Shown in pieces: positions 12,058 to 33,457 of a DNA stretch of 34,396 nucleotides. Location: the NCBI GenBank assembly GCA_000442015.1, contig KE561110.1:1-34396 (forward strand). Direction: 5' to 3'. The translations under genes were made by a program, and so were the position numbers. This stretch comes from Rozella allomycis CSF55 (lineage: Eukaryota). The number at the start of each line of letters is the position of its first letter. Within the stretch, counting starts at the first letter, position 1. The notes below the pieces were generated by a model that did no database searches, was not told the origin of the DNA, and was given only the letters and a program-made list of their open reading frames with translations.

Positions 12058-13029
12058 TTAAAATTTGAAAACTTGATCTTTCTGGTAATTCAATTTGGCT
12101 AATAACCCGCTTAATTCGCCTTGACTATAATCAGGAGCCTTTGGACCACATACAGCGCCTACCATTCCAGGCGGTCCGCAAATGAGAATCTTAGAGTATT
12201 CGTCATCAGGAGAAGGCATGTATTGTTTAACGAGTTTCTCGTTTACATACCCTGATTCGCCATGCCAATTTGGAGACGGCTTATCCAAGAGGTACACTAT
12301 GTTAAATCTTTCTGGATTATTTAAGACAAGCTTCTCTAAGTCGGTTCTCAGTAAGATGTCATCTTCAGTTACGTTTCCAAATATTAAAGTAAACTTAGTT
12401 TTGTCGTTTGGATTTCTCATAGCCTTTTGTAATACTTGAAACATTGGCGTGATCCCGGTACCCCCTGCTATCATCCCAATATGCTTAAATTCATTGCTAT
12501 GATACTCAAACTTTCCAATGGGACCCTTAAAAGATAAAAAATCGCCAACTTTTAAGTTTCCAATGTAAGATGATAGTTTTCCATCAGGATAAGCTTTTAC
12601 CACCATACTGAATTCATTTTTGCCATCTTCTTCAATTGTCACAGGTGTGTAGGGACGGACAACAGTTTCTCCGTTAATATCAGCTTTTACTAATAAAAAA
12701 CTTGACACTGGCATTTTATAAGCCTTATCACTAGGAACTTGAAATGTTATTTTGTATGTATTTGGGGATATCTGTAATTTTTTACTCACCTATTATTCAC
12801 GAGCCAAAAATCATACCTTAAAATCTCTAAATTCCTCTGGAGAGAACATGCTTTCTTGGCTACTTTTATCGTAATCGCAAAACTTATAATAGGAGTAAGC
12901 ACCCGCAAGTATGGTTGCAGCCCCGATACCTAGCGGTAGTCCAAAATTCGATTTGAAGCTTTGTTTATTGCTGTAAGGTCGGGAGAAGGTCAAAGGAATC
13001 CTAGAGGCGTACTTTGATACTCCAGTTGA
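12058..13029 (-). CDS. MCR1: NADH-cytochrome b5 reductase, mitochondrial Mcr1-type (5' truncated at N13030); intron 12790-12816
   Basis: RPYTP, YPDGKLS, GMIAGGTGITPM, CGPPGM and SQGELSGLL...QVFKF; N-terminal presequence plus TM anchor. Confidence 0.9.
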
Positions 13030-13030
13030 N

Positions 13031-13826
13031 TATCCTTAAATAACAAATTTAAGTAAAAAGAATCTTTTAAAGAATTCAACAAGTTAGAATTCTTTATCTG
13101 TTCTACCAGGAACTTCACAGCGTCAATATTCTCTGCTGTTGTTGAAATCCTTAGCGCATCTAGCAAAAGCTTTTCCATATCGACATTATTTAAATTAAAA
13201 TAAGTATTTAAAACACTCGCGAAAAATTCACCCATAATATTTCTACGAGCTCCTCCTTGAATAAGACTTTCAAGCAAACTAATTGCGTTTTTGACTGTGC
13301 TAAATTCTTCGGAATCTATTGAAAGGTCATCAGATGATGATAATGTCGAAAAAACTTTTGGCATTCGTTTTTTTCTTGAATTTCTCGATGTTGTCGTCAG
13401 CGGTTTTCTTTTTATCAATTTAATCATCATCATAACGTTTTCCATCTTACGCGCGTAAAGATAAGCCTTAATGATAGAAAATTCATTTTCCAAAAGTATA
13501 GAGGGCTTAAAATGTTGGCTGCCCATAATTGAGACAAACAATTCAGGATCTTTAACCAAACTTGATGTTTCCAACAGTTTTACATTTTGAACAAAGACTT
13601 CTTCAGATATAATGGAAAGTACATCTTTAATAATGATCATGTTGTTTCCAAGCAATGCACCTTGCATAATCTCATAGTTGTTTTGCTGCCATGCACTTTG
13701 ATCCAACGTATTCTTAAGTTCCACGAATGTTTCCAAATCACCTTTTGATACCGCTTCCAAAACCTTTGAGAATGGATCTTCTGCGGCAATAAGAAAGGTA
13801 AAGAATAACAGAGTGAAAAAAAACAT
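13031..13826 (-). CDS. Secreted helical/ankyrin-like protein (3' truncated at N13030)
   Basis: Signal peptide MFFFTLLFFTFLIAA; ankyrin-like segments EAVSKGDLETFVEL and ENIDAVKFLVE; basic patch RNSRKKR. Confidence 0.75.
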
Positions 13827-13875
13827 TTTCAGACCTGCGCCACTGGACTTAGTACAACATTAACGCACAGAACCC

Positions 13876-14160
13876 AAAAATATAAACGAGAATGATGTAG
13901 AATAGTATAATAATACCCTTCTTTTGACATGGATTGCCTTCTATGTCAACCACAGCGAAATTATTTGATAATTTTTTAACACATCAACCGAAGTTGGAAG
14001 GGGAATCGATTTGTCAAAATCACCTTGGAATCGAACCAAGCCCTCCAGTAAATTACCAAGTATAAACCGCAACCACTGGGAATTGAACAGGGGATTACAG
14101 TATTACTAGGGTTAGGGTTACTTTAAAATGCTAGTGCCCTGTCCATTGCATCACCAGAAT
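13876..14160 (-). ncRNA. Candidate structured ncRNA, possibly telomerase RNA (boundaries approximate)
   Basis: Minus strand has TAACCCTAACCCTA (14107-14120), an A-box-like TGATGCAATGG, B-box-like GTTCAATTCC and GGTTCGATTCC, a C(UUCG)G tetraloop hairpin and several further stems. Confidence 0.5.
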
Positions 14161-14212
14161 GAATAAAAAGTCAAAATGAAAATTATATCTTTTTCCAGCG
14201 ATTTATTGAAGT

Positions 14213-16957
14213 TTAAAATAGAGGCAAGTATTTGAGGCTTGAGTTTTCGTCAAATATTTTGGTTTCAGATGTATGTTCAATGTGGAAAAACCTTAAAGCT
14301 CCACAAGGAATCAAGATTTCAGAATCGACTTGGCATTCTTTGGAGAATGGATTTAATCCAAATTCACATTTTACAGATTTTGCAACTTTGTTCCCTTCGA
14401 CATACAAGTTGACTTTAACATGATCAACGATTTCATGTTTATATTTAATGGTTGGGATAAAGAACCTGTAATGAGCGCTGTGATGAAAATTGACTCTGTA
14501 GAACAAGTATCTTGAATTTTCAATAGCGTCGTCACCCATCTCCGCCATGACTGAATTTAAAATAGAATCTGATTGAGGACAGAATTTGTAACTTTCGTCG
14601 TTTAACGCGAATTTCTAACTTTTTAATGTTTGATAAATTTACCTTGACGTTGAGCTTATAATCTTCAACAAGAACAGACAATGCTTTGTATTGACTATAG
14701 AGAGCATCATTGAAATCAGAGAAAATCATTTGAGACTTCATTCTGCTGGATGGAGAGTTATTAGAATTTGGAATGGAACATTTGAGTAACTTTGAAGAAT
14801 ATTTATGAGATATTGCCATGTTACCATACCAAACCTCACCATTGTATTTTTTATCAGGCATTTCGGAATCTGAAATTTTAATTTTCAGAATGCTTTTATT
14901 CACCATGGAAGATTCAATTTTTGGAAAAGGCCCACCAGTCTTGTGTAAGCGATTAGCCCTTTGATTGTAAACCAAATGGCCAGGAAGTGTTAAATAGATA
15001 TTAGTATGTGAAATAGGAGCGTCTTTATAACTTAAATATATATTTCTCTTGTCTGTAACCTCTCGAATGTCACATAAATCCAAAGCCATAAGTTCCGGGA
15101 TGAATCTGATTTGTACGTTGGTTTTATCTTTTTCAGATTCATTATTACCCAAGGTGGCAGCAATGTATTCTTTGGGGCTGTTTGTATTCATTTGAAAGCA
15201 AACTACTTCAACTTGAACTCCGTGGACTAATATTGTGTAATTTCCATCCTCGAACGATTTTATTCCTTGCGCTATAAATTTGCGTTTAATGTCAACGCAA
15301 GATTCTATTTTCTTTATTTTATTTTTTAAATCTACCAAATTGTAAACAACAGGCGGTTTAATTTCAATATCGGTGATCGAAATAGACGTCGCAGCCAGCT
15401 TGGAGGTCATTGAGAAACCAACGTACTTGATTCCACTCAAATCACTTTTAAATAAGGTTAAATCAATCACTACAGCATCTTGCAATGTTGATTTTTGCCC
15501 TTTATTCAAAACCAAGAAATTATCGTAAATATTAATCGCGTAACTTTCATACACACCCTGGCTTACCAAAAAATTAGGAATAAAATCAACAGAACAAACT
15601 TCCTTGTTTGAATCACGAATTGAACATATTTTATAACTTGAACGGTCGAGATTCAAAGTTAAAGTGAATCGAATGTGCTGAGGAGCTGAAGCAAACAATA
15701 TGTTGATATTATCTTGAATCATTGCTTTGAATGAAATGTGGCCACTTCCATAATTCTCAAGAACGTTATTGCTAGAGAAATAGTTCTTTCCTCCTTCAAT
15801 TAAAAAATCCACATCACCAAGGGCTGGAACACCATCATGGAACATTTCAGTCGCAACTTTAACGATCGGACGTAATTTTTTGTATTTTAAATCTTCAAGC
15901 AGAAAATAGATGGGTTTTAGCGTAAATCCTATAACAGACGGATACTCCTCTACAGTAGAGAGCCATTTCTCAAATCCTTCTTTCATTCCCCCTTGATTAT
16001 TAACCTTTTAAATTTTAACGTAAAAATTACTTCTGTCACCATTTTAGAAGCTTCAGGTGATCCTCCTTGAGCGTTATAAGTTACTTTTGAATTTTCTTTG
16101 AATTTCTTGACCTTTTCTTCTTCATCGTGACCGACACTTAGAGATACTGAAGCAAATGCATTTTTGAAATAAGCTGAAGCCTGAACTCCCAGAGAATGGT
16201 GATTTTCAGAAGAAGATTTGGACTTTTCCGCTTGAACGACAAGGCTACCTCCAAAGTCGGCTGAATTAACAAAAGTTGTACCATAAATTCGAAAGAATCT
16301 GTATAAATGAGGATACAAAATTTTGAGCAATTCTATGGTAGAGGCACCTTCGTTTTGTTCAATAATATCTAGCCATTCTTCAACAAGTCCTTTAAAGTTC
16401 TCATCGGCGTATTCCATACTTAGGGGATTCAAATGAATGTGGAAACATTTAGATTTGAAAACATACACAGCAATAAAATTTTCACTTGTTTTACATTCAA
16501 TAGAAAACTTACTTTGACGTTTTTTCTGAATTTTGACTATTCACATTTGAGCTAAACCCAAAACTGGCTCCAAAATAGTTAACATCAGCCTGTGCTGAAA
16601 CTTCAAGAGATTTTGCTTTTGAATATTCTTCTTGAGATAAATATATCTCGACATCGGTATTCAAAGAGTACAATGGAAAAACGTTTCTATTACATTATTG
16701 AATTTTAAATTACAAGTCATCTGGAACAAGATATTTTTTAAATTTCTTCTTCATTGTGAGGCCAACATCCCTAAAGATGCTTCGTTTGATATTATCGTAA
16801 AACCCAAAGCTTTTGGTGACATCTTCCATTTGTGTGAGAAAGTCTCTTTACCGTAAGATTTCCCAACAAAGTTCCAACCAGGAATGAAATATTCTTTTTC
16901 ATCTGAACAATAAATGAGCGACAAATATGCAAAAGTAAAAAACAACAAAAGATTCAT
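14213..16957 (-). CDS. Secreted MACPF/perforin-like protein A (~868 aa): MACPF + FAMeT-like + GON-like domains; introns 16823-16851, 16687-16713, 16485-16512, 16005-16030, 14615-14642
   Basis: Signal peptide; IPGWNFVGKSYD; MACPF signature YGTTFVNSADFGG; AQGGSP; FEKWLSTVEEYP..LKPIY; IKYVGFS; SCVDI...DGNYTILVHG..V.C..M..PKEY. Five tiny introns give an intact 2607-nt frame. Confidence 0.88.
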
Positions 16958-16991
16958 TTTTTCTTCCGGGGTGAAAATTTTCTACCCCGGC
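16958..16991. promoter_or_regulatory. 34-bp bidirectional promoter region with near-perfect palindrome
   Basis: CCGGGGT-GAAAATTTTC-T-ACCCCGG (16966-16990) lies between the two divergent MACPF ATGs. Confidence 0.7.
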
Positions 16992-19748
16992 ATGTTGAAA
17001 ATATTTATTTGTTGCATTTTTCTTGTTCAAGTGGCACTTGGGCAAGTTCTGAGAATTGTTTCGGATAGTCTTCATGAAGCAAAGAGATTGGCTGTTGAAG
17101 ATGCCCCAACTGATCAGGCACCATCTCAACCTGAATCACCAAAAGTTGTCTACGATGCGATCCCTGGGACTATGTTTGTTGGTTCTGGATATGGTATACA
17201 TTTTATTTTTTATTAAAAAGATGCCAGTAAACAATATGGAACATTTGAAAATATGCGACATGACTTGATAATCAAACAAGGCGGTGATGTTTCGCCTGAT
17301 AAAATATTCAATGAAAAATATTTAGTTCCAAGCAACGTGTAAATTATTAAACATAAAATTGAAAGTGATGCTTTTGGAATTTGGAAAACTTTTGCTGAAA
17401 CAAATTCCTTCTCGTCTGAAGCAGAATTTATTTCTTCTCTTGGAAATAGAGTTGCTGGCGAAGGTGGTGGATCATGCTTTGGAATAAATGTTGAGGCTTC
17501 TGCTTCATTTTCATCAAAAAAAGATAAATCTTCAAAAGAGTACATTGCATTTATGAAAATTAAATAGATTAAAAAAGACAATTGTATTTGAGACAAGAGT
17601 GGAATTATTTGAATTGGTGCTGCAACCAAATAGTCTTCAAGAAAATGTTGCGCCCGTTTTTAAAGACTTGATTAAAGTGGCTCTTGACAAATATAATGAA
17701 ACCAAAGACGCAGGTGTTTCTGAAAGAATTAAGAAAATGTATGAATACTATTATTACTTCTTTGACGCCTGTGGAACTCATTATGTTAAATCTGCCGTTC
17801 TTGGAGGGCACTTATTTATAAAGATTGAAGCTTCCGTTCAAGATCAAAGTGAAATGAACAAAATTGAAGCAGCAGCTTCTGCATATGTTTCAGGGCTTTG
17901 GGGTGGCGGTGGTGCGTCAACTTCTTACAGTGATGAATCTGGAGAAAAAAAATTACAAGAAAAAAGTGTAATCACATTTCAAGGCTTTGGAGGTGATCCT
18001 TTAAGTGGCTTGGTTGTAAATGCTGACAATGATATGAAAACTGCCTTTGAATTTTGGCTTCAGACTGTTCCTGATAAACCAAATATTGCGCGGTTCACAA
18101 TCGATCCGATTTATAACCTATTAGACAAAGATTCTCAAGTTTTATATTCTGATATGAAAATAGCCTATGAAATGTATTTGAAAAGAGTCCCTCCAAAGGG
18201 AGACAGTAAGCAATTATAACGCTTCTAACTTTAGATTATTTTGATCTTCTTCCGTATGTTCCATCTGTATGGAGTTCTTCCAATGTTTTAACCACCCCTG
18301 GCAATGGATTGATAACATTTGACGCTGTTGTTTCAGATTCATTTTCCGTTCAGTTTGCAACACTTCCTCAATCGCCTGTTTTGAAAATTAACTTTGATGT
18401 TTACAAGGGTTGCTCATTTCAAATATTTCAAGAACAGAAAAATTCTATTACCGGGATACTTGATTTGGTGGTGCCAAAAAGCGTTCTAACCTCTTTTTGG
18501 ATACAACTTGAAAATGGAGAAAATTTATATGTTGGATTTGGCAATCCTCCTGGACATGGATCTAAACCTCTTTACTCTAAAAGAAACTTGGCATCTTATC
18601 GTGATTTACTGTCTAAAGTTGAATTCGTTGGATTTACTTCATCTGGTTCAAGAGCCACAAGCTTAATTGGATTAAATATTCAAGAGCCTGCTCACATTTA
18701 TCAAAAACAATTTCAAACATGTCAGGATTACATGAATGACCATCCATCTGAAAGAGGGGGTCTCAAAACGCTTATTTGGCATGGTTTTCCCGTTCAAATT
18801 TACTGTTACAAAGACAACAATGATTGGAAGGAATACTTGGAATTGCTAGTCTCTGCCACAGGTGTTTACAAAAATATTCAAAATGACTTTCGCTACATAC
18901 GAATTTTACCAGAATACATGGCCTTGGATCTTTGTGATACGAAAATGTCAACAGATACAGCGGGTTATCCGGGTGTTTTTGATGCAAAAAAATTGAATGT
19001 CGACACAAATGCATCTGCTTCTATAACATTGCCACCTTCATTTGCCTTTCACGAATTTGCTAATAACATGGTAGGCCAAGGTGATATCCAATCATTTGTC
19101 TTTCAAATAAGCGATAATAACAATGTTTTATCCATTAAATCTAACGGAGACATTGAAGAAGCTGAAATCTGGTATGGAAATCCATCATTAAGTTATTCCA
19201 TTCCTGACTTGGAAACATGCCAAACTGATATAGGTCATCCTCATAAGGTTTTAGTTGTTTACTTGAGACAAATAATGGATGTAACTGACAATCCCTTTCG
19301 AACTTCCTATGGCATGCCCCCTGTTTGTCCAGGTGGCTCATTTCAAATCCCCGTTGAAGCGGCCACTGCCATAAAGGATGAAAGCTCAATTAATGTAACC
19401 TATAATGATGCTGCTATTGAATTGGATAATTTACAAGATATTTCTTTAGTTTACCTTGTAGACTTTCCGTATTCTTCCAAATATTGGATTGGTCTGGATA
19501 TTGAAAATTTCAAAGGTGAAGTTAACGCTGTTTTAATCGACGGAATATCAGTCTTAGATCATCCTTTAAACGAAGAAAATAAGCACTTCCTTATTCATCA
19601 CGTAATTCCTTGTGGTGTCCATAAAGTCCTAATTAAATTTAACAAAAATAATAATTCTAAGATGCATTTAATGACTGAAGATGAGATCGCGGTTTTCAAT
19701 GGTTTCATACTGTCGACTGTGATCAGCATAGATGACGAAAATAAATAG
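16992..19748 (+). CDS. Secreted MACPF/perforin-like protein B (~881 aa): MACPF + FAMeT-like + GON-like domains; introns 17194-17220, 17339-17365, 17540-17567, 18206-18234
   Basis: Signal peptide MLKIFICCIFLVQVALG; IPGTMFVGSGYD; CGTHYVKSAVLGG; GFGGDP; FEFWLQTVPDKP..IDPIY; SFWIQL..LYVGFG..VEFVGFTS; TCQDY...VQIYC...KEYLEL. Spliced frame of 2646 nt is intact. Confidence 0.9.
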
Positions 19749-19977
19749 GCATAACATTTCTTTAATTCTCGCTTTAGTCTTCTGTCTTTTTGATGTCTTT
19801 CTTTCTTTGTCACCCAATTGTTTAGCCCTTCGTATTCTCAAATTCTCTTCTCAGTTGTTTCTCCTTGTATACTTAAAATATATTGTTTTGAAATGTCACA
19901 TTGTACCAAGTTTCGCTATGTAGCATAACGATTTTTCATTTTCAACTTGGACCCCTGTACCCTGGTTTCCATTTTTT

Positions 19978-22496
19978 ATGATTATTTTTATCGTGCTGAT
20001 ATTTTTTAGCCTTTTTTCCTCTTTAAACGGAAAAATACTGAAAAGAGAAGATGGTGATGATCCCACTAGAATATCAGATCGTTACCTGTCCCAAATAAAG
20101 GACTCTTTTGAAATAGGAGAAAATCATATTTCTGGAAAAAGCGATGACATTGCCTTAAATTATGGTGTATCTCTCTCTGGAAATAAAATAGACCAAATCC
20201 ACAAGGATTTCCTGTCGCTAGTCAAGCAAGCAGTTCTCTTTGGCAAAAGTCCTCAGGGCCAATGTTTTTCTTTGGTTAACGGAAAAATGAAATTTGAAAA
20301 AGACTTTGAAAATCTAATATTGTTTTTGGGATGCTTTAGATGGCTTGAGAATGAGCCCAAATTTCTAAAATTTGCCAAATTTGACGAAGATCAACTTCGG
20401 GAATGGAAAACACTTGGCGCTGAATTGGAGAAAAGGACTTTTTCGGCTATTGAATCATCTATTACAAGTAATAAGTGCAAGGATTTTATTGATGAAAATC
20501 CCAAAATTTCAAAATTATCAAACAAAGAGAAATTGAATGAGATCGCCGCGGGATATCTGGTAGGACCTTGTAAAACCGATTTTCTAAAATTTTTGGAATC
20601 ACTCATTCTCAAAAATAAAAATTTCAAACTTAAAATGAGTAAATATGCTGCAATTATGGGTAAATTCGCACATGAAGATAAAGAAAATCCTTTCCACTAT
20701 ATTGTAAATAATGATTACACATCGAGTCAAAAAGGCAATTTTAGGATTCCATTTGAACATTTAGACCTTGTTAAATACAACAGGGACAGTTATGTTAATC
20801 CTGGTTACTATTCAAACATTGAAACCTTCTACGAAATACTACAAACACAAGTCAAATTTGATGAAAAAAAAAGAATTTATCTCTTAACGATTGGTTTAAA
20901 ACCTCTGTCTAATCTCTCTGTTGAGAGAATATTGATGGACACTGAAACAAAGGTGGAAGTCAGTCCTATAAAATTCGAAAAGCTTGTACGAGATGAATTT
21001 TCCTACTTTGTCAATACCGTGATATATGAAGGAAAGAAAAGAAAAGCTAAGAGATTCGGAAGGACTGATTTAGAAGACGCATATGTACTTTAATTTATAA
21101 CTCTATAATATAGATTGGATTCCATTCCATCACCGTACCAATTGTAGCGCACAGAATCTCGACAAATGAAGTCACATTTTACGCCTACGATCCTGCGATC
21201 GTTACTTGGAATCCTAAAGTATCCAGCTCCTTTATTGAAATTAATGAATATATAGGTTTAATATCGTCTGGTTTGAGGAAGGAAAATCCGGAGAGTAAAT
21301 TGTACACCTTTATTGCCACCTATGAAAGAACACTGACCAAAGGTAGTGTTTTGCAATCCCTAAGTGTGGCTTTGTACAATGATTTTTCCCGTTTAATTAA
21401 TTTTCAAAGACATGATGATCCCAAAAAGAGACCACTCAAGCTGACAGATAAAGAGAAACCAGAAGAAATTCCACTGAAGGATATTCGTGGCGAAAGGTAT
21501 TGGTGCAGTTTTAAAGATCTGCTTGGACATTACGCTGCTCAAAACACTTTGCTAGATGGAAAGAAACGTCGAGTTATGTATGCCGCATCATTAGTTAAAT
21601 TCCAAGACCTTTTAAAGAGCACCTTGACAAAATTTAAATTCCCAAATACTGAAATTCTGGAATCTCTTCAGTTTTTAATTACTTGGGTTGCTGAAAATTT
21701 GGCTTATACACTTCCTTGTCTTGAGGAAGACGTTGATTTTTACAGTGATGGTGCCATTGATCAAATTACCATGTCTGTGAGCTTCAATGATGACATGACA
21801 GACGAACAACTTTATCTTGGGATCCATAATACGCCATATCAAAGAATAAAGAGAGCCAATCAGAAGACTGGAATTATGAGTAAATGTGCGTCCCCATTTA
21901 AATTTACGACTGAACCTTTTTTTCAGTCAAACTCAATTTTACATTACCTAGTTGATAAAGACTTGCAGTTCGAAGAGAAACCAGCTGGATGGCCGCGTGG
22001 ATCATGTGCTGAAGATCAGTGTTGTACTTTGGCCATTACGGGTGGGTTTCCGTTTAACAAGGAAAAATTGCCAAATCCTATTGTACCAGATGAAAAGAAT
22101 AGAAAAAAATCGTTAGCTGTTTTATCTTTTAGATATTACCCCAGAGATCGATTGTTTCTAACTCCAGTTGATAGATGCAAGAATTGCCAATCATATCGTC
22201 AAGCAAAGAACTCTGAAGGAATATTCCAAGATATTTCGTACCAAGGTATCTCTTTCACGGATTGGATGTACTATAATATGCTTCACACATCTGGGCAAAG
22301 CACAGCGTTTGGACTTCCCAAAGGAACAATTCTCTCTGAAAAAGATGCTTCAATCGTTGGCCATTTAAAGAAGATTAAGAAATACATGTCCGTTAAAGAA
22401 AACTACAAGGCTCTTAGAGATCACGAAGAAGATCACGTTTACGCAAAGAGCAAAGCATTTTCTTATGTCGATGTTCATCAAAATATTAATATGTAG
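19978..22496 (+). CDS. Secreted ~829-aa protein with C-terminal Zn-dependent deaminase-like domain; intron 21085-21113
   Basis: Signal peptide followed by a KR site. A 29-nt GT-AG intron fuses the 371-aa and 407-aa ORFs in frame. Motifs GWPRGSCAE (CAE at 22005-22013) and DRCKNC (22176-22187). Confidence 0.75.
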
Positions 22497-22582
22497 TGCG
22501 ATGGGTATTTAAATAAATTTTAAAATTAATTATCGTTTTTTAAAAATTTTCATGTTGAAAAAAAATCACACCCTTGTTTCAA

Positions 22583-25500
22583 ATGAAATCTTTGGTATTC
22601 TTTTGTATTCTCTTGATCTCTATTGTTTGTTTTGATATTAAACAACATATAAGAGAGGATAATGTTGAAAAGGTTCGTCAAATAGTTGATAATGCCAGCT
22701 ACTATGAAAAGCGTCGTTACTTGACTTCTGAAATTTTAAGTTCTTGTTTTTCCAACTCAAATGAAGCTAAAATGAAAATATTTAACTATTTGTTGGAAAG
22801 TGTTGATAAAGTTGGCAAACTTGATAAAGTCTTGATTGAAAATAACTTTCGAATATTGTATGATTTGAATAACAGAATATTAATGGATAAAGAACCCACT
22901 GGTCTGTGTCAAATCAGCAGTACTTTGACAAGTCGGTTTGCTTCGTCCCGGGATGTTCAGCAAGCATTAAGCCAATATGTTCTTCGTGTAGCGAAAAGAG
23001 ACTTATCAGTCGATACTGTTGGCATTCTAGTTTTGCCGATTATAAAATCTGTTCAAAAATGCTATCAGGCTAATATTGGAATGAAGTTAGTGGAAGAGAA
23101 TTGGTTATTAATGATACAAAATATTATTGAAGAAGAGAAAAATAGTGAGTTTGTGTATTCAATGATAGAATTTGTTGTTTTGACTAAGAAAGAGAACGAG
23201 TTGTTTGATGAAGAGTTTGCGATAACATTGATTGAGTCCAGGCATAGAAGTTTCTATATTCTGCATTTTCTTAAAATTGTGGAATATTTTTCACTTGAAA
23301 AGAGTTTTGGCGCATTGTTAGGCGTGCCTGAATTAAGAAAAGCGGTTGAAGAGGAAAAATTTGAAGAATTTGACAAAATTCAAAGATTATTGAAACGAAT
23401 TGGAATTGAAAAGCAAATTGCGTCTTTTGATAATTTCATTCTAGCCCGTGAAGCATCTAAAAAGAATAATCTAGATTTTCTTAAAATTCTTCTTGAATGG
23501 GATTATGTAAATTCGCTGGCTTCTGAAAAGTACGAAATAATCAAAAATGCTTTTGAAGATAAGAGATTACTGAATTATATTTGTGAAAATCCTTCATTGC
23601 CCACTGTGATTATGAAGAGCCAAATTTCCAAAGAAAATAAAGTTTTCCGATTTTTACTTGAAAACTGTAAGGTTGATGATATAGCACTTGGAAATATCAT
23701 GGACTTAATTATCAAAAACAATGATCTAGCAATTTACGAAATTTTCAAATCTGTTGAAGTGGGGAAAAGATTTATAAATGAGAATTTTCACACTTACATT
23801 CTCATGTCGGCTTCCAAAGAAAAATTAATGTTCTTTTATGACCTGTTTATAATTAAAATGCACTTTTCTTTTACAATTGTGGAATCTGACTTTCAAATAT
23901 CTCTTAACAACGCTATTCTTAAATCTGATGATCCAATCAGTTTGTTAGGAATTGTCAGCAAATTTTATGGATTGAAAATTTATCCGATTTTTTTCAATTA
24001 TGATGATTATAACTTGGTCTATTCTCATATTTTAACATCCGAAGGAGATTCGCTATTGAAATCTTGGTTTATTAATGTTATTTGTCAAAAGGAAGAATCA
24101 ATAAATCATTTCATTTTTTCTGTTGACTCAAAGAAAGCTGCAATTCTTCATCAATTTATGGTTGATCAACAATATTACAAAGACAACAACAAATTTCCCT
24201 TATATGTCCGTATATTGTTTATGGACAAGAAAGGATTTGAATATCTCTTTGACAAGGATCAAATATTCTTTTTGGAATTTTATCAATCCACCTATAAAAA
24301 TCATTTGGATGATGCAATGAACTCAATTACTAAATTGAGAAATGAAGATAACGTTTATGTATGGGTAAAGGAATATTCTCGAGATTTCAAAAATCATCTT
24401 TCATATCATACTTTGAAAGCATTTGCTGAAATAAGCTCTCAAATTCATAATGATGATGATTTTAATTCACAAATGGCCGATATTTTACAAAGTCATCTGG
24501 GGTTTATTAATCAGGGCGTGAAATGCATTGTTGAGCCTTTTAAGCAAGAAACACCAACTGAAGAAAATTCTTCTTATTATCCTGAGGTAGCGCAAGGGTT
24601 TAAAATTGGCCCAAAGTTGAAACGACAGCTATTAATTGATCACGAAATTAAATATTTAACAAATGCTTTCAAAGATCCTTCATCTTTCTGGAGACATTTG
24701 AATCATTTAAATGTGATCTATTCTGGTTTTATTGTTGTTGATGAATTGTTATATTTTATTAAATATCGTGATTTCATAAAAGGAGAATATTTAGCCAGTT
24801 GGATTGAAAGATTATTTGAAGTTTATCCACAACTGAAATCTGAAATTGCTAAGAGCAAAAATTTTCTTTCACTGCTTGAAAGTGATGATATTTCTATAGT
24901 TTTAAATCACATTTATGTTCATATAATTACTGATTTCTATGAATTTTTTACTTCGGTCAATAATTGTGATGACTCTGCACGTTTGTATAGTGACTGGGTA
25001 AGTATATTTCGAGCGTATCCAATCAAATTGAGATTAAATTCTGGATTTGGAAGCATGATCAATTTGGAATTATTTGCTGATGTGATAAGTTTGCGTTATC
25101 GTATGTTTTTCCCCTGTTCACAAGGGGATGATAAAGAATTTCTGACTTTCACTATATCGAGAATGAGAGCTGCCTTATTCGTTTCAGAGTACGAATTTTC
25201 AAAATTTAATCTAATTCGTGCGATTGAAAAGATTGAAAACAGTTTATCTTCAATCAATTTGAAATTTCATCCCTTTTTAAAAAGGGCTCTGAACCTTGTA
25301 AACGAAGATGATTTCTCATCTAAAATGTTCATCCTCTTGAAATTGGAATATCTTCAAAAAATCGATCAAAATGTTATTGAACCAAAAGTTGACTCCATAA
25401 TTTATGGCTGCGCATACTATTTTGACGTAGCTTTTCGTTATAACATCCGCGATTTCACTATATTCGACAAAAGCTATCCCTTACGTGAATTTAAAAAAAG

Positions 25501-25621
25501 TGTAGAAAGGTTTTTTTTTGAATATATGTGTGGTGGACGCTTCCATGATGCCATCTTTGCCGTGATACGTACACCAGGTGCTTTATCTAGATTTTTTCAA
25601 CAATGGCTTCCAGAAGCATGA
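22583..25621 (+). CDS. Large intronless secreted helical-repeat protein (~1012 aa) with degenerate ankyrin-like segments
   Basis: Signal peptide MKSLVFFCILLISIVCF; LAREASKKNNLDFLKILLE; 3-kb uninterrupted ORF; AATAAA after the stop. Confidence 0.85.
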   Translation: MKSLVFFCILLISIVCFDIKQHIREDNVEKVRQIVDNASYYEKRRYLTSEILSSCFSNSNEAKMKIFNYLLESVDKVGKLDKVLIENNFRILYDLNNRILMDKEPTGLCQISSTLTSRFASSRDVQQALSQYVLRVAKRDLSVDTVGILVLPIIKSVQKCYQANIGMKLVEENWLLMIQNIIEEEKNSEFVYSMIEFVVLTKKENELFDEEFAITLIESRHRSFYILHFLKIVEYFSLEKSFGALLGVPELRKAVEEEKFEEFDKIQRLLKRIGIEKQIASFDNFILAREASKKNNLDFLKILLEWDYVNSLASEKYEIIKNAFEDKRLLNYICENPSLPTVIMKSQISKENKVFRFLLENCKVDDIALGNIMDLIIKNNDLAIYEIFKSVEVGKRFINENFHTYILMSASKEKLMFFYDLFIIKMHFSFTIVESDFQISLNNAILKSDDPISLLGIVSKFYGLKIYPIFFNYDDYNLVYSHILTSEGDSLLKSWFINVICQKEESINHFIFSVDSKKAAILHQFMVDQQYYKDNNKFPLYVRILFMDKKGFEYLFDKDQIFFLEFYQSTYKNHLDDAMNSITKLRNEDNVYVWVKEYSRDFKNHLSYHTLKAFAEISSQIHNDDDFNSQMADILQSHLGFINQGVKCIVEPFKQETPTEENSSYYPEVAQGFKIGPKLKRQLLIDHEIKYLTNAFKDPSSFWRHLNHLNVIYSGFIVVDELLYFIKYRDFIKGEYLASWIERLFEVYPQLKSEIAKSKNFLSLLESDDISIVLNHIYVHIITDFYEFFTSVNNCDDSARLYSDWVSIFRAYPIKLRLNSGFGSMINLELFADVISLRYRMFFPCSQGDDKEFLTFTISRMRAALFVSEYEFSKFNLIRAIEKIENSLSSINLKFHPFLKRALNLVNEDDFSSKMFILLKLEYLQKIDQNVIEPKVDSIIYGCAYYFDVAFRYNIRDFTIFDKSYPLREFKKSVERFFFEYMCGGRFHDAIFAVIRTPGALSRFFQQWLPEA

Positions 25622-25784
25622 TAAATAAATTATATTTCACCTGATTTATCTATATTATTAATAAATACTTATCGCGTGCACAGGCGTGTGCGCAGGCGTC
25701 TAAAGTAGAATGCTTCTTTTAAATGAAGGCATGTGTCATACCTGACGAAATAAGGGTAATACGGACATTAATGTCCTAATAAGN

Positions 25785-27870
25785 ACCTCTTGCTTGCTGG
25801 TAGTTATATTCGTTGAAGTACTTGGTAAGTCGTCATCAATTACTAATGCAGGATTTGGCGAAATTGATTTTTGAGAATTTGGAAGAAAAGAAAATGGTTG
25901 TTGTGTAATTGATTCCATACGCAGTCGAAAGTAACCTTCCATGTCTGCCATTACTTTATCAATATCGTTCGGTGACGTAATAAATTTCTTTAAAGTTTCC
26001 AACGATTTTTCCTTTCCAGCAGGCTTCGCTTCAAAGTTACATGCAGCGTCAACCATGTCTTTGATGTTATTGTCAAGCCCGTTCGGTTTTATTCCGCAAT
26101 GTTGCTCAAGAAAAGTTGTTCCAATTGAAAGTAAATTAGTATCATCACGTCCTTTTCACACAAGACTCTTCCCAGCTGAAGATTCTGAACAAACGCTGGC
26201 TTCCATTTAGAAACACAACCCTCCACCGGCATTTCCATTTGTTTAGCAACCTCCAACAAATATGATGCGTCATTTTTGTACGACTTAGCAACAGCAATGT
26301 CTTTATGCCTTGCAAATTGCATTATTTTGTCAAATGTAGCACCACTCCAAACGGCCAATCAATAACCTGTTTTTGTACATGTATGAGTACCCCAAGGTCA
26401 ACTTCTTTTAAATAGCTCTCGGCAAATATTTTTAAATCTATATACGAATGCCTCATATGTTAACCAAGTTTGATATTGACCATCCTCTGGAGGATTTAAT
26501 AGCTCTTCACTGGAGGGAAACAAGTGACCTCCTCGGTGCTTTAACAAATAAAGGTAAACTTGTAAATGCAATATTGGACAAAACTCTGGATTTTCTTTAT
26601 CGGCCCACATCACCAATATTTGCGTGGACTTGTCTGTTTTAATGAATGGATGGATGGATGTCTTAAAAGATGAAAGTAAGATGAATTAAAACCAATCAAA
26701 TAGAGATTGAGGTAGAAACGAGTGTTTATTTACATTTTGTTGCTTCTTTTATCTTCTACTGTTTCCATGGATACTTCCCTTCTAGAACCTTCTAATAAAT
26801 TGTTTTCATATTCATTCTTCATAAACTTTTCTTCTTTAGTTTCTATTATTATAATTCCTTTGACTTCTTGGAGGTGTGCTAACACCTCATTAAGCTTTAC
26901 TTGAATTTTAGCTTCGTTAATTCCAGCTTCGTTAATCTCTTTGCCACCGAAGCTTATTCCAACATGTTTTTCCGTTTACTTTGACAGCAAGGGACTGAAT
27001 TATTCCATCTCGTATTATTGACAATGATCGGTCAAAACTTTCAATTGTTAACCCTGATGGAATTCTGATACTATGGTCATTTTTACAATCTCCTGTAGCT
27101 TCGTTACTCCTTAAAAAGAGTTTAATTGAAATTAACACTAAAACCCACAGCTGACAATCCTCAATATTATTTTTCGCTAACAAGGCGATTCTGATTCTCT
27201 GAAGTTCAAATTGTGTAAGAGCGCTATCACCTTCCGCAACATAATATTCGCCTTCTTTTGCAGATTTTCCCATAGCACTCTTAACAATTATATGCGTTGA
27301 CGGACAACCGTTTCGCCAAATGCACGGTTTGCCTCGATGAATAATGCAACCAAAGCCACGATTAGCAAAATCCTCATTCCAACAATCGATGGACGGCTCT
27401 GCATATTGCCCACCATTTCCTCGAAGAGTGTGTACCGACATGAACTGTTTAACATTTTTGGGATCATTCCAACCGCCACAGCACTGCACAGGTTTTCCAC
27501 AAACATCTATTACTTCATTTTGATTAATATCCTTTAAAATGGACCCTTTCATACCACGCTTGCTATTAATGTAATGGGCTACACTAGTAGCGTTGATTGA
27601 AGGGCAGAAAGGCGTTGGACAATGCTTATGCAACAACAAAAGACTCTCGTAATCACCAATTAGGGTTAAACACTCCGACAATCCCCGAAAATGCTTTTGA
27701 TAGGCAAGTTTGGTGCGCTTACTTATACCCCAATCATTTACTTGCTCCACTCTATTTTCTGACAGTTGTAAGCCCAAATAGTTTACAGTGTTTATAATGC
27801 CAAGATCTGCAGCGTCATGGTATTCTTTCGGCACAATTTTAGATTTTCTCACTTTTTGTTCACGGGGCAT
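25785..27870 (-). mobile_element. Crypton-like tyrosine-recombinase element, pseudogenised
   Basis: YR motifs LFLRSNE (R), VNGKT/DK (K), FCPILHL, GTHTCTKTGY (HxxR position reads T) and ARHKDIAVAKSY (H...Y). In-frame stops near 26360 and 26399, a frameshift, and an insertion at 26640-26964. Confidence 0.8.
26640..26964. mobile_element. ~325-bp insertion with target-site duplication (probable solo LTR)
   Basis: Flanked by TGTTT(T) at 26635 and 26965; one end is TCCAACA (TGTTGGA on minus). Removing it restores the recombinase frame GKT-DKS. Confidence 0.7.
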
Positions 27871-31410: not shown

Positions 31411-31564
31411 GAGGTAAAAATGATGCTAACTCAAATCGAATTAAAGGTGTGTGAAGTCCGGGGCTCCCTCCCCGTCCGATAAATGTTGGTGGCTTGTGAA
31501 ATAAATAGAAGAAAAAAACTGTTGGTGGCTTGTGTGGCCGTTGCAAATTTTTTTATTCGTTGTA

Positions 31565-33457
31565 ATGGGTTCCCCTTCTACTCGCTTACAAGACTTACCA
31601 ATCGAGCTGGTTATGAAAATTCAAAGTTTTCTTCCAGAACACGACTGTATTTCATTCCTTTTATGTTTCCATTCCGTTGAGTTATTTAATGAAGCGTGCA
31701 AGATAAAATCGGATTATAATAAAATTTGTTCAGCTGGAGCAACAAGGTATCTACGCATATTTCTACCCAAATTAAAAAAAACAAGTGACTCTTTCTTAAC
31801 AAGTGCCAGTAGATTCGGACGCACTAATGTCTTGGACTGGTTCGTGAAAAGAGGTTTCGAATTGAAATGCCCTGAAGATGCTATAAACTGGGCCTGTAAC
31901 AATGGCCATGTTGATGTTCTTGAGTGGTGGAAGAAAAGTGGTTTAGAGTTGAAATGGAGTGAAGATGCTATGGATCTTGCTAGTGAAAATGACCATGTTG
32001 ATGTTCTTGACTGGTGGAAGAAAAGTGGTTTAGAGTTGAAATGGAATAAAGATGTTATGATCTATGCTAGTGGATATGGTCACTTGAATGTTCTTGAATG
32101 GTGGAAAAATAGTGGATTAGAGGTGCAATGGAGTGAAGATGCTATGGATCTTGCTAGTGAATATGGTCATGTTAAAGTGCTTGAATGGTGGAAGAAAAGT
32201 GGTTTAGAGTTGAAATGGAATAATTGGGCTATGGACAAGGCTAGTAAAAATGACCATGTAAATGTTCTTGAATGGTGGCAGAATAGTGGTTTACAGTTGA
32301 AATGGAGTATTAGGGCTATGGACTGGGCTAGTTGGAATGGTCACTTGAATGTTCTTGAATGGTGGAAAAATAGTGGTTTAGAGTTGAAATGGTGTGAATT
32401 TGCTATGAACTGGGCTAGTCAAAATGGTCACTTGAATGTTCTTGAATGGTGGAAAAATAGTGGAGTAGAGTTGAAATGGAGTGAAGATGCTATGGACTGG
32501 GCTGGTAGAGATGTCCATATTGATGTTCTTGACTGGTGGAAGAAAAGTGGTTTAGAGTTGAAATGGAGTGAAGATGCTATGGATCTTGCTAGTGAAAATG
32601 ACCATGTTGATGTTCTTGACTGGTGGAAGAAAAGTGGTTTAGAGTTCAAAGACGCTATGAACTGGGCTAGTGAATATGGTCACTTGAATGTTCTTGAATG
32701 GTGGAAGAATAGTAGATTAGAGTTAAAATGGACTTATTTGGCTATGGGTTATGCTAGTTCAAATGGTCATGTTAATGTTCTTGAATGGTGGAAGAATAGT
32801 AGATTAGAGTTGAAATGGAGTGAAAATGCTATGAACAGCGCTAGTGAATATGGTCATGTTAAAGTGCTTGAATGGTGGAAGAAAAGTGGTTTAGAGTTGA
32901 AATGGAGTGAAGATGCTATGGATCTTGCTAGTGAATATGGTCACTTGAATGTTCTTGAATGGTGGAAGAATAGTGGTTTAGAGTTGAAATGGAGTGAAAA
33001 TGCTATGAACAGCGCTAGTGAATATGGTCATGTTAAAGTGCTTGAATGGTGGAAGAAAAGTGGTTTAGAGTTGAAATGGAGTGAAGATGCTATGGATCTT
33101 GCTAGTGAATATGGTCACTTGAATGTTCTTGAATGGTGGAAGAATAGTGGTTTAGAGTTGAAATGGAGTGAAAATGCTATGAACAGCGCTAGTGAATATG
33201 GTCATGTTAAAGTGCTTGAATGGTGGAAGAAAAGTGGTTTAGAGTTGAAATGGAGTGAAGATGCTATGGATCTTGCTAGTGAATATGGTCACTTGAATGT
33301 TCTTGAATGGTGGAAGAATAGTGGTTTAGAGTTGAAATGGAGTGAAAATGCTATGAACAGCGCTAGTGAATATGGTCATGTTAAAGTGCTTGAATGGTGG
33401 AAGAAAAGTGGTTTAGAGTTGAAATGGAGTGACGATGCTATATATGAACAGCGCTAG
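31565..33457 (+). CDS. F-box-like + ankyrin-like tandem repeat protein (~19 repeats of 29 aa)
   Basis: LQDLPIELVMKIQSFL (F-box); repeats WSEDAMDLASEYGHLNVLEWWKNSGLELK (87-nt unit). The last repeat is frameshifted by a 4-nt duplication near 33440. Confidence 0.9.
   Translation: MGSPSTRLQDLPIELVMKIQSFLPEHDCISFLLCFHSVELFNEACKIKSDYNKICSAGATRYLRIFLPKLKKTSDSFLTSASRFGRTNVLDWFVKRGFELKCPEDAINWACNNGHVDVLEWWKKSGLELKWSEDAMDLASENDHVDVLDWWKKSGLELKWNKDVMIYASGYGHLNVLEWWKNSGLEVQWSEDAMDLASEYGHVKVLEWWKKSGLELKWNNWAMDKASKNDHVNVLEWWQNSGLQLKWSIRAMDWASWNGHLNVLEWWKNSGLELKWCEFAMNWASQNGHLNVLEWWKNSGVELKWSEDAMDWAGRDVHIDVLDWWKKSGLELKWSEDAMDLASENDHVDVLDWWKKSGLEFKDAMNWASEYGHLNVLEWWKNSRLELKWTYLAMGYASSNGHVNVLEWWKNSRLELKWSENAMNSASEYGHVKVLEWWKKSGLELKWSEDAMDLASEYGHLNVLEWWKNSGLELKWSENAMNSASEYGHVKVLEWWKKSGLELKWSEDAMDLASEYGHLNVLEWWKNSGLELKWSENAMNSASEYGHVKVLEWWKKSGLELKWSEDAMDLASEYGHLNVLEWWKNSGLELKWSENAMNSASEYGHVKVLEWWKKSGLELKWSDDAIYEQR

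Follow-up and report, generated by a model that had tools for sequence, protein, structure and literature searches.

The window analyzed here is a complete contig of Rozella allomycis CSF55, 34,396 bp in length. Between positions 12990 and 25621 it harbors exactly five genes, designated ANK278, MACPF-A, MACPF-B, DEAM and HEL; every other open reading frame (ORF) of at least 60 amino acids (aa) in this interval overlaps them. All five encode proteins with signal-like N-termini, two of them belong to the MACPF family, and in the databases searched their distribution was confined to Rozella. The genes are densely packed, with intergenic sequence accounting for 735 of 12,632 nucleotides (nt) in four spacers of 386, 34, 229 and 86 nt. 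The largest spacer (13827-14212, 386 nt) contained ORFs of up to 53 aa only, and no Pfam, tRNA or Rfam matches were detected in it. An initial annotation of the sequence had described an N-free block containing five secreted proteins, interpreted as a possible island in which MACPF pores deliver neighboring cargo proteins; the limits of this block are single N's at positions 13030 and 25784.

Gene models were built from the sequence by joining abutting long ORFs in differing frames via tiny GT..AG introns. Ten introns were placed in three spliced genes (14615-21113), nine of them in the MACPF pair and one in DEAM; all are 26-29 nt long with GT..AG ends, and their removal restored the long reading frames. 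TG acceptors were permitted in the intron search, and none was required. MACPF-A (14213-16957, minus strand) encodes 868 aa in six exons (16852-16957, 16714-16822, 16513-16686, 16031-16484, 14643-16004 and 14213-14614) separated by introns of 29, 27, 28, 26 and 28 nt. MACPF-B (16992-19748, plus strand) encodes 881 aa in five exons (16992-17193, 17221-17338, 17366-17539, 17568-18205 and 18235-19748) with introns of 27, 27, 28 and 29 nt. The divergent start codons of these two genes are separated by a 34-nt spacer (16958-16991). Despite an identity of 28%, both proteins have the first three intron positions in common, namely after G-x-x-Y, after Y-L-V-P-x-x, and after an S-K/S-N site. DEAM (19978-22496, plus strand; exons 19978-21084 and 21114-22496) encodes 829 aa, two ORFs of 371 and 407 codons being one gene across a 29-nt intron. 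HEL (22583-25621, plus strand; 1012 aa) and ANK278 (12990-13826, minus strand; 278 codons with one X at the N in position 13030) each consist of a single exon.

Each of the five start codons is the first in-frame ATG past a stop. For MACPF-B, an alternative upstream ATG at 16914 is possible; the start at 16992 is favored because a model from a single-cell assembly and a third Rozella MACPF protein, EPZ34202.1 (P0008, 910 aa), both start at the hydrophobic segment. The public model of MACPF-B is EPZ32826.1 (O9G_004097; P0001). Compared with the window sequence from 16914 to 19748, two in-frame segments of 6 and 20 residues are removed from it and its N-terminus differs. An I-P-C-G motif within the 20-residue segment is conserved in MACPF-A and P0008, so genuine coding sequence is probably lost from the public model by splicing.

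Export was predicted not with SignalP but with a heuristic that looks for a hydrophobic peak among the first 20 residues, small residues at -3/-1, and any hydrophobic segments further on. In all five proteins, the most hydrophobic 10-residue stretch of the N-terminal 20 residues had a Kyte-Doolittle value of 2.3-3.6 and was accompanied by a -3/-1 small-residue site. The signal-like N-termini read MFFFTLLFFTFLIAA followed by ED in ANK278, MNLLLFFTFAYLSLIYC followed by SD in MACPF-A, and MKSLVFFCILLISIVC followed by FD in HEL. By the same heuristic, a later 19-residue hydrophobic segment was found in none of the five proteins, and no membrane anchor was apparent. The heuristic was likewise passed by P0008, P0007 and P0003, the paralogs that could be traced. 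A cluster had been defined as at least three adjacent genes for predicted secreted proteins, and here the heuristic identified five out of five; the claim of five adjacent genes with signal-like N-termini was thus borne out by the gene models and by hydrophobicity and cleavage-site analysis. Additionally, the sequence K-I-L-K-R was observed directly after the signal-like segment of DEAM (19978-20050), and the pattern K-I-[LF]-K-R recurs at this place in its paralog EPZ31684.1 (P0007). This pattern is reminiscent of a dibasic (Kex2-type) cleavage site.

The assignment of two genes to the MACPF family was confirmed at the sequence level. With Pfam MACPF (PF01823, cutoff 21.5), MACPF-B reached 61.5 bits in exon 4 (E = 1.6e-16) and its public model P0001 60.4 bits (E = 3.5e-16); MACPF-A gave 32.5 and 24.2 bits on two exons, and P0008 66.8 bits. 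A profile made from a three-sequence alignment of MACPF-A, MACPF-B and P0008 was compared with the PDB, where all 22 matches at E ≤ 5 were MACPF proteins and nine of them reached E ≤ 0.001. The best match was C8-beta (1e-9, profile positions 73-360), and others included Toxoplasma PLP1 (7e-7), C7, the insecticidal proteins GNIP and Mpf2Ba1, and perforin-1 at 0.037-0.04; perforin-2 (MPEG1) was not among the 22. Every match fell inside profile positions ~36-360. The MACPF signature, (Y/W)-G-(T/S)-H-(F/Y)-x6-G-G, appears as C-G-T-H-Y-VKSAVL-G-G in MACPF-B and as Y-G-T-H-Y-VKQAVM-G-G in P0008, and it aligns with the GTHY..GG of C8-beta. MACPF-A carries Y-G-T-T-F-VNSADF-G-G, with Thr in place of His.

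Over nearly their full length, MACPF-A and MACPF-B are 28% identical, MACPF-B and P0008 33%, and MACPF-A and P0008 24%; the head-to-head pair is therefore old, and the nearest paralog of MACPF-B lies elsewhere. The C-terminal region of ~500 residues can be aligned among the three proteins. It had no solved relative in the PDB profile search, and in a word-index search the C-terminal region of MACPF-B matched only itself. In MACPF-A, a stretch of 55 residues in this region aligned with profile positions 3-52 (of 199) of the GON domain, scoring 32.8 bits where the cutoff is 22.6; no GON match at E ≤ 1 was obtained for MACPF-B or P0008. The MACPF fold is composed of a bent beta-sheet and two helical clusters which refold into membrane hairpins. 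An AlphaFold2 model of MACPF-B, calculated from the three-sequence alignment, had a mean predicted local distance difference test (pLDDT) score of 31.9. The 34-nt spacer between the two genes contains a 7-bp inverted repeat, CCGGGGT (16966-16972) and ACCCCGG (16984-16990), around an AT-rich core. The heptamer occurs three times in the window, twice in the spacer, against 0.61 expected, and at least three occurrences were reached in 3 of 100 shuffles. This repeat may be a regulatory site shared by MACPF-A and MACPF-B.

The 829-aa protein DEAM belongs to a small family. When its C-terminal 460 residues were searched with HMMER against 1.84 billion representatives, three matches were obtained, all from Rozella: EPZ31684.1 (728 aa, signal-like N-terminus, 28% identity over the full length), the partial model RKP18136.1, and the chimeric model RKP19276.1. 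The motifs CAEDQCC and R-C-x-N-C in the C-terminal half are invariant in all three DEAM paralogs. Members of the deaminase superfamily bind zinc via [HC]-x-E and P-C-x-x-C motifs in a fold of a five-stranded sheet with two motif helices. In DEAM, C298-A-E300 and C355-K-N-C358 are invariant, 55 residues separate E300 from C355, and Arg replaces Pro before the second motif. No deaminase family was found in Pfam at E ≤ 10 with the DEAM domain and two paralogs, none among PDB entries by phmmer or profile searches, and hhalign gave probabilities of 0.19% against Escherichia coli Cdd and 0.08% against TadA. The AlphaFold2 model of the C-terminal half, again from a three-sequence alignment, had a mean pLDDT of 37.5. 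In a protein atlas, the best matches of the DEAM C-terminal domain (0.91) were unnamed Ascomycota clusters, and a cluster at rank 12 (0.86) contained YwqJ-deaminase in 11% of its members; the best score of the paralog P0007 was 0.82. The N-terminal half matched nothing in the PDB at E < 0.2. Hence, the gene predicted by the initial annotation is real, with 829 aa and one 29-nt intron, and the deaminase label derives from the conserved C-A-E and C-x-x-C motifs, with no support from Pfam, the PDB or hhalign. A deaminase fold in DEAM appears possible, on balance rather unlikely. As judged from its conserved residues, the Cys/Glu-rich C-terminal module could represent a metal-dependent enzyme or a toxin domain; the cysteines may also simply form disulfides of an exported protein.

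ANK278 gave no match in Pfam at E ≤ 0.1 or in the PDB at E ≤ 1, and its exact sequence was absent from a collection of 15 billion proteins. This orphan had been called ankyrin-like, a description that found no support: no Pfam Ank match at E ≤ 0.1 was obtained in the 278-aa or the 1012-aa protein, while a true ankyrin gene of 641 codons at 31532-33457 scored 3.7e-35 in the same search. For HEL, the word-index search returned a single relative, EPZ31217.1, with 68% identity; there was no Pfam match (E ≤ 0.1) and nothing in the PDB at E < 0.2. When ANK278 was aligned to HEL and to DEAM with hhalign, the probability was 0.1%, and pairwise comparison of the five proteins revealed no similarity outside the MACPF-A/B pair. 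The stop codon of ANK278 overlaps a TTG at the expected start of a cytochrome-b5 reductase gene (12985-13040). No in-frame ATG precedes this TTG in the reductase ORF, and the single N lies 40 nt upstream; either the reductase has an unusual start, or its ORF and ANK278 are linked in some way.

The surroundings of the cluster are of mixed character. To the left, housekeeping genes for eIF2-alpha, an EamA transporter and cytochrome-b5 reductase are located. On the right-hand side are ORFs with the look of repeats or mobile elements, along with a DNA-alkylation-repair gene and the true ankyrin gene. The first 6.4 kb of the contig contain retrotransposon gag, pre-integrase and RNase H domains as identified with Pfam, i.e., transposon debris.

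The rarity of such a run of genes was estimated from published counts for Rozella, 350 SignalP-4 proteins among 6,350 coding sequences (PMC5315462, as given in its methods and supplement files 12 and 4). Among 20,000 random placements, which ignored contig breaks and for which SignalP calling of these five proteins was not established, a run of at least five occurred with P = 0.0025 and a run of at least four with P = 0.052. The latter figure applies when the paralog pair is counted once. If 10% of all genes carried signals, 0.06 runs of at least five and 0.57 runs of at least four would be expected. The run is therefore unusual, not overwhelmingly so. According to the initial annotation, its proposal would fail if such runs followed from the secretome fraction; the five genes form a run rarer than random placement predicts, and this holds only marginally when the pair is collapsed.

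Coupling of the five genes was examined at the level of paralogs, upstream sequences and fusions. The traced paralogs reside on three different contigs, EPZ34202.1 (MACPF) on one of 29,999 nt, EPZ31684.1 (DEAM) on one of 719,121 nt and EPZ31217.1 (HEL) on one of 6,628 nt or less; the accessions lie far apart as well. Because of this, MACPF, DEAM and HEL do not recur as a unit, and the suggestion that MACPF genes are recurrently associated with cargo genes found no confirmation, the immediate neighbors of these paralogs being unread. Metagenome scans yielded 162 pattern matches for MACPF and 590 for DEAM, none of which was confirmed, and no relative emerged. The upstream regions of the cluster genes had no common motif of at least 8 nt, and only AT-rich 7-mers were common to three of them; the candidate promoter motif GAAAATTTTC, with up to one mismatch, occurred six times against 7.5 expected. 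In the protein RKP19276.1 from the single-cell assembly, residues 1-609 of MACPF-B are followed in frame by the final 363 residues of DEAM, and its gene adjoins the HEL gene on a 9,094-nt contig. Relative to the window, the fusion lacks 2,475 nt (18930-21404), and the ends of this deletion are not GT..AG; the fusion may be an artefact of amplification or assembly, or a real allele.

Taken together, the locus is probably best read as a compact cluster of genes for exported, Rozella-only proteins, a secretome or 'effector-type' cluster of an obligate intracellular parasite. This reading, which we hold with some though by no means full confidence, is suggested by the compact arrangement of Rozella-only genes for predicted exported proteins on a small contig with transposon debris. 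The core of the cluster would be an anciently diverged MACPF pair, transcribed outward from the 34-nt spacer, in which each protein combines a putative signal peptide, a MACPF domain and a Rozella-only C-terminal region of ~500 residues. Once secreted, the MACPF proteins might attach to a target membrane via the C-terminal region, assemble into oligomers and make holes in host-derived membranes, be these organelles of the host, material engulfed from it, or its envelope when the parasite exits. By analogy with the apicomplexan perforin-like proteins, perforation of host-derived membranes is the most probable MACPF function. ANK278, DEAM and HEL would then be independent orphan secreted proteins. 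That the five genes adjoin each other is most probably due to the accumulation and duplication of fast-evolving genes for secreted proteins in such regions, and not to delivery of the neighbors by the pore.

Several points weigh against the 'effector-type' reading. Secretion is predicted by the heuristic alone, not by SignalP or proteomics, and the N-termini could instead be signal anchors or could direct the proteins to the endoplasmic reticulum (ER), the vacuole or the cell surface. With the paralog pair collapsed, the run is only marginally unusual; furthermore, the secretome fraction derives from the SignalP-4 count of another group, which may exclude these five genes. Since no spacer separates ANK278 from the cytochrome-b5 reductase gene, it is uncertain whether ANK278 is a gene of its own. 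The AlphaFold2 models of MACPF-B and the C-terminal half of DEAM were poor, as the mean pLDDT values reported above show, and lend no fold support to the MACPF C-terminal region or to DEAM. Finally, the gene models are predictions from sequence, and one RNA run under the same species label yielded no more than four matching fragments, which were 18-21 nt long and came from two contigs.

Adjacency without shared biology, with some of the proteins being residents of the parasite ER, vacuole or surface, is an unlikely explanation, yet the most serious competitor considered. The frequency of runs when the MACPF pair is counted once, and the number of runs of at least four expected at 10% signals, are both compatible with it; so are the failure to find a shared regulatory motif and the dissimilarity of the five proteins outside the pair. 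It is, however, difficult to reconcile with signal-like N-termini in all five proteins, given the P-value for five at the published secretome fraction, and with the contrast between five genes restricted to Rozella in the searches run and conserved housekeeping genes at the flank. It is doubtful that the MACPF proteins act instead in digestive vacuoles of the parasite, where, together with hydrolase-like proteins sent to the same compartment, they would break engulfed host organelles in the manner of perforin-2 in phagosomes. Rozella has been reported to engulf host cytoplasm, a signal peptide equally routes proteins to the endolysosomal system, and none of the five proteins has a membrane anchor; moreover, the profile resembles the MACPF core in general and no single functional subgroup. 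Neither a sorting motif nor MPEG1 among the 22 PDB matches was found, however.

The proposal of the initial annotation, a clustered delivery system of the perforin/granzyme type, here taken to mean that MACPF pores translocate DEAM and HEL-type proteins into the cytoplasm or organelles of the host and that the genes are clustered for co-regulation, was upheld in part: the lineage-restricted run of signal-bearing proteins with two MACPF genes stood, the labels and the coupling did not. As an explanation of the locus it is improbable. Packing is tight, with MACPF-B, DEAM and HEL on one strand at gaps of 229 and 86 nt, and the run is improbable under random placement. The CAEDQCC and R-C-x-N-C module of DEAM looks catalytic, the rank-12 atlas cluster includes YwqJ-deaminase, and RKP19276.1 physically joins MACPF-B to DEAM. 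This last piece of evidence is, however, open to the suspicion of an amplification or assembly artefact, and the module is open to that of disulfide bonding, with deaminase matches lacking in Pfam, the PDB and hhalign (<1%). Evidence of coupling of any kind was not obtained: the paralogs lie on three different contigs, and no upstream motif of at least 8 nt is common to the genes. A more specific version, which must be called a long shot, is that MACPF-A and MACPF-B, co-expressed from the 34-nt palindrome-bearing spacer, form a two-component pore that admits the adjacent orphans, including a new zinc-enzyme-like toxin domain, into the cytoplasm or organelles of Allomyces. If true, this pore would represent an independently evolved perforin/granzyme-like delivery system in a fungal parasite of fungi, and the fusion of MACPF-B with DEAM would be its natural single-chain version. 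To our knowledge, the genes for perforin and granzymes are not genomic neighbors.

Among known systems, the apicomplexan perforin-like proteins (Toxoplasma PLP1, 5oup; Plasmodium PPLPs) resemble the Rozella proteins in being secreted MACPF proteins of obligate intracellular parasites with a large non-MACPF C-terminal region; for Rozella, secretion is a prediction. They act in egress and traversal. Toxoplasma PLP1 was the best single-sequence match in the PDB (3.3e-4) and ranked third among the distinct proteins matched by the profile. In contrast, the ~500-residue C-terminal region of the Rozella proteins was found only in Rozella and bears no detectable relation to anything solved. Complement C6-C9, especially C8-beta, and perforin-1 have the MACPF core in common with the Rozella proteins, and complement pores are built of diverged paralogs, a parallel to the A/B pair; unlike these proteins, the Rozella MACPFs carry no TSP1, LDLa, EGF or C2 domains detectable with Pfam.

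The effector clusters of the biotrophic parasite Ustilago maydis likewise consist of adjacent lineage-specific genes for secreted proteins without known domains, including paralogs, whereas four of the five Rozella proteins are large (829-1012 aa) and two come from a known family of pore formers. Co-induction during infection is reportedly the defining property of the Ustilago clusters. With bacterial polymorphic deaminase toxins (YwqJ, DddA-like), DEAM has in common a C-terminal module with C-A-E and a downstream C-x-x-C; it differs in the missing proline of PCxxC, in the 55 residues between E300 and C355, and in the absence of Pfam, PDB and hhalign matches. Such nucleic-acid deaminase toxins are secreted by polymorphic toxin systems of bacteria.

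Rozella belongs to the lineage closest to the microsporidia and serves as a model for fungal-type cells turning into intracellular parasites. It possesses at least three predicted-secreted MACPF proteins with a private C-terminal region, and this family was not found in print: a literature search, which did not cover the first report of the genome (James et al. 2013), identified no paper pairing Rozella with MACPF, the 15 top-ranked papers for MACPF together with rozellid or aphelid groups made no mention of MACPF, and the only two papers with both Rozella and perforin were unrelated. The family provides candidates for membrane perforation parallel to the apicomplexan perforin-like proteins, and the 829-aa orphan family with its invariant Cys/Glu module merits a biochemical assay. 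Caution is advised with motif labels such as 'deaminase' or 'ankyrin' and with gene adjacency, which are not evidence of a delivery system.

Two further observations concern the region to the right of the cluster. The true ankyrin gene is composed of near-identical 33-residue units, and a match to SsdA_C, the C-terminal domain of a single-strand DNA deaminase toxin, reached 24.4 bits against a cutoff of 27; this match is probably an artefact of the repeats. Adjoining the cluster, a series of ORFs on the minus strand (25736-27870) changes frames and has no Pfam match. By eye it resembles a decayed tyrosine-recombinase (Crypton-like) element.

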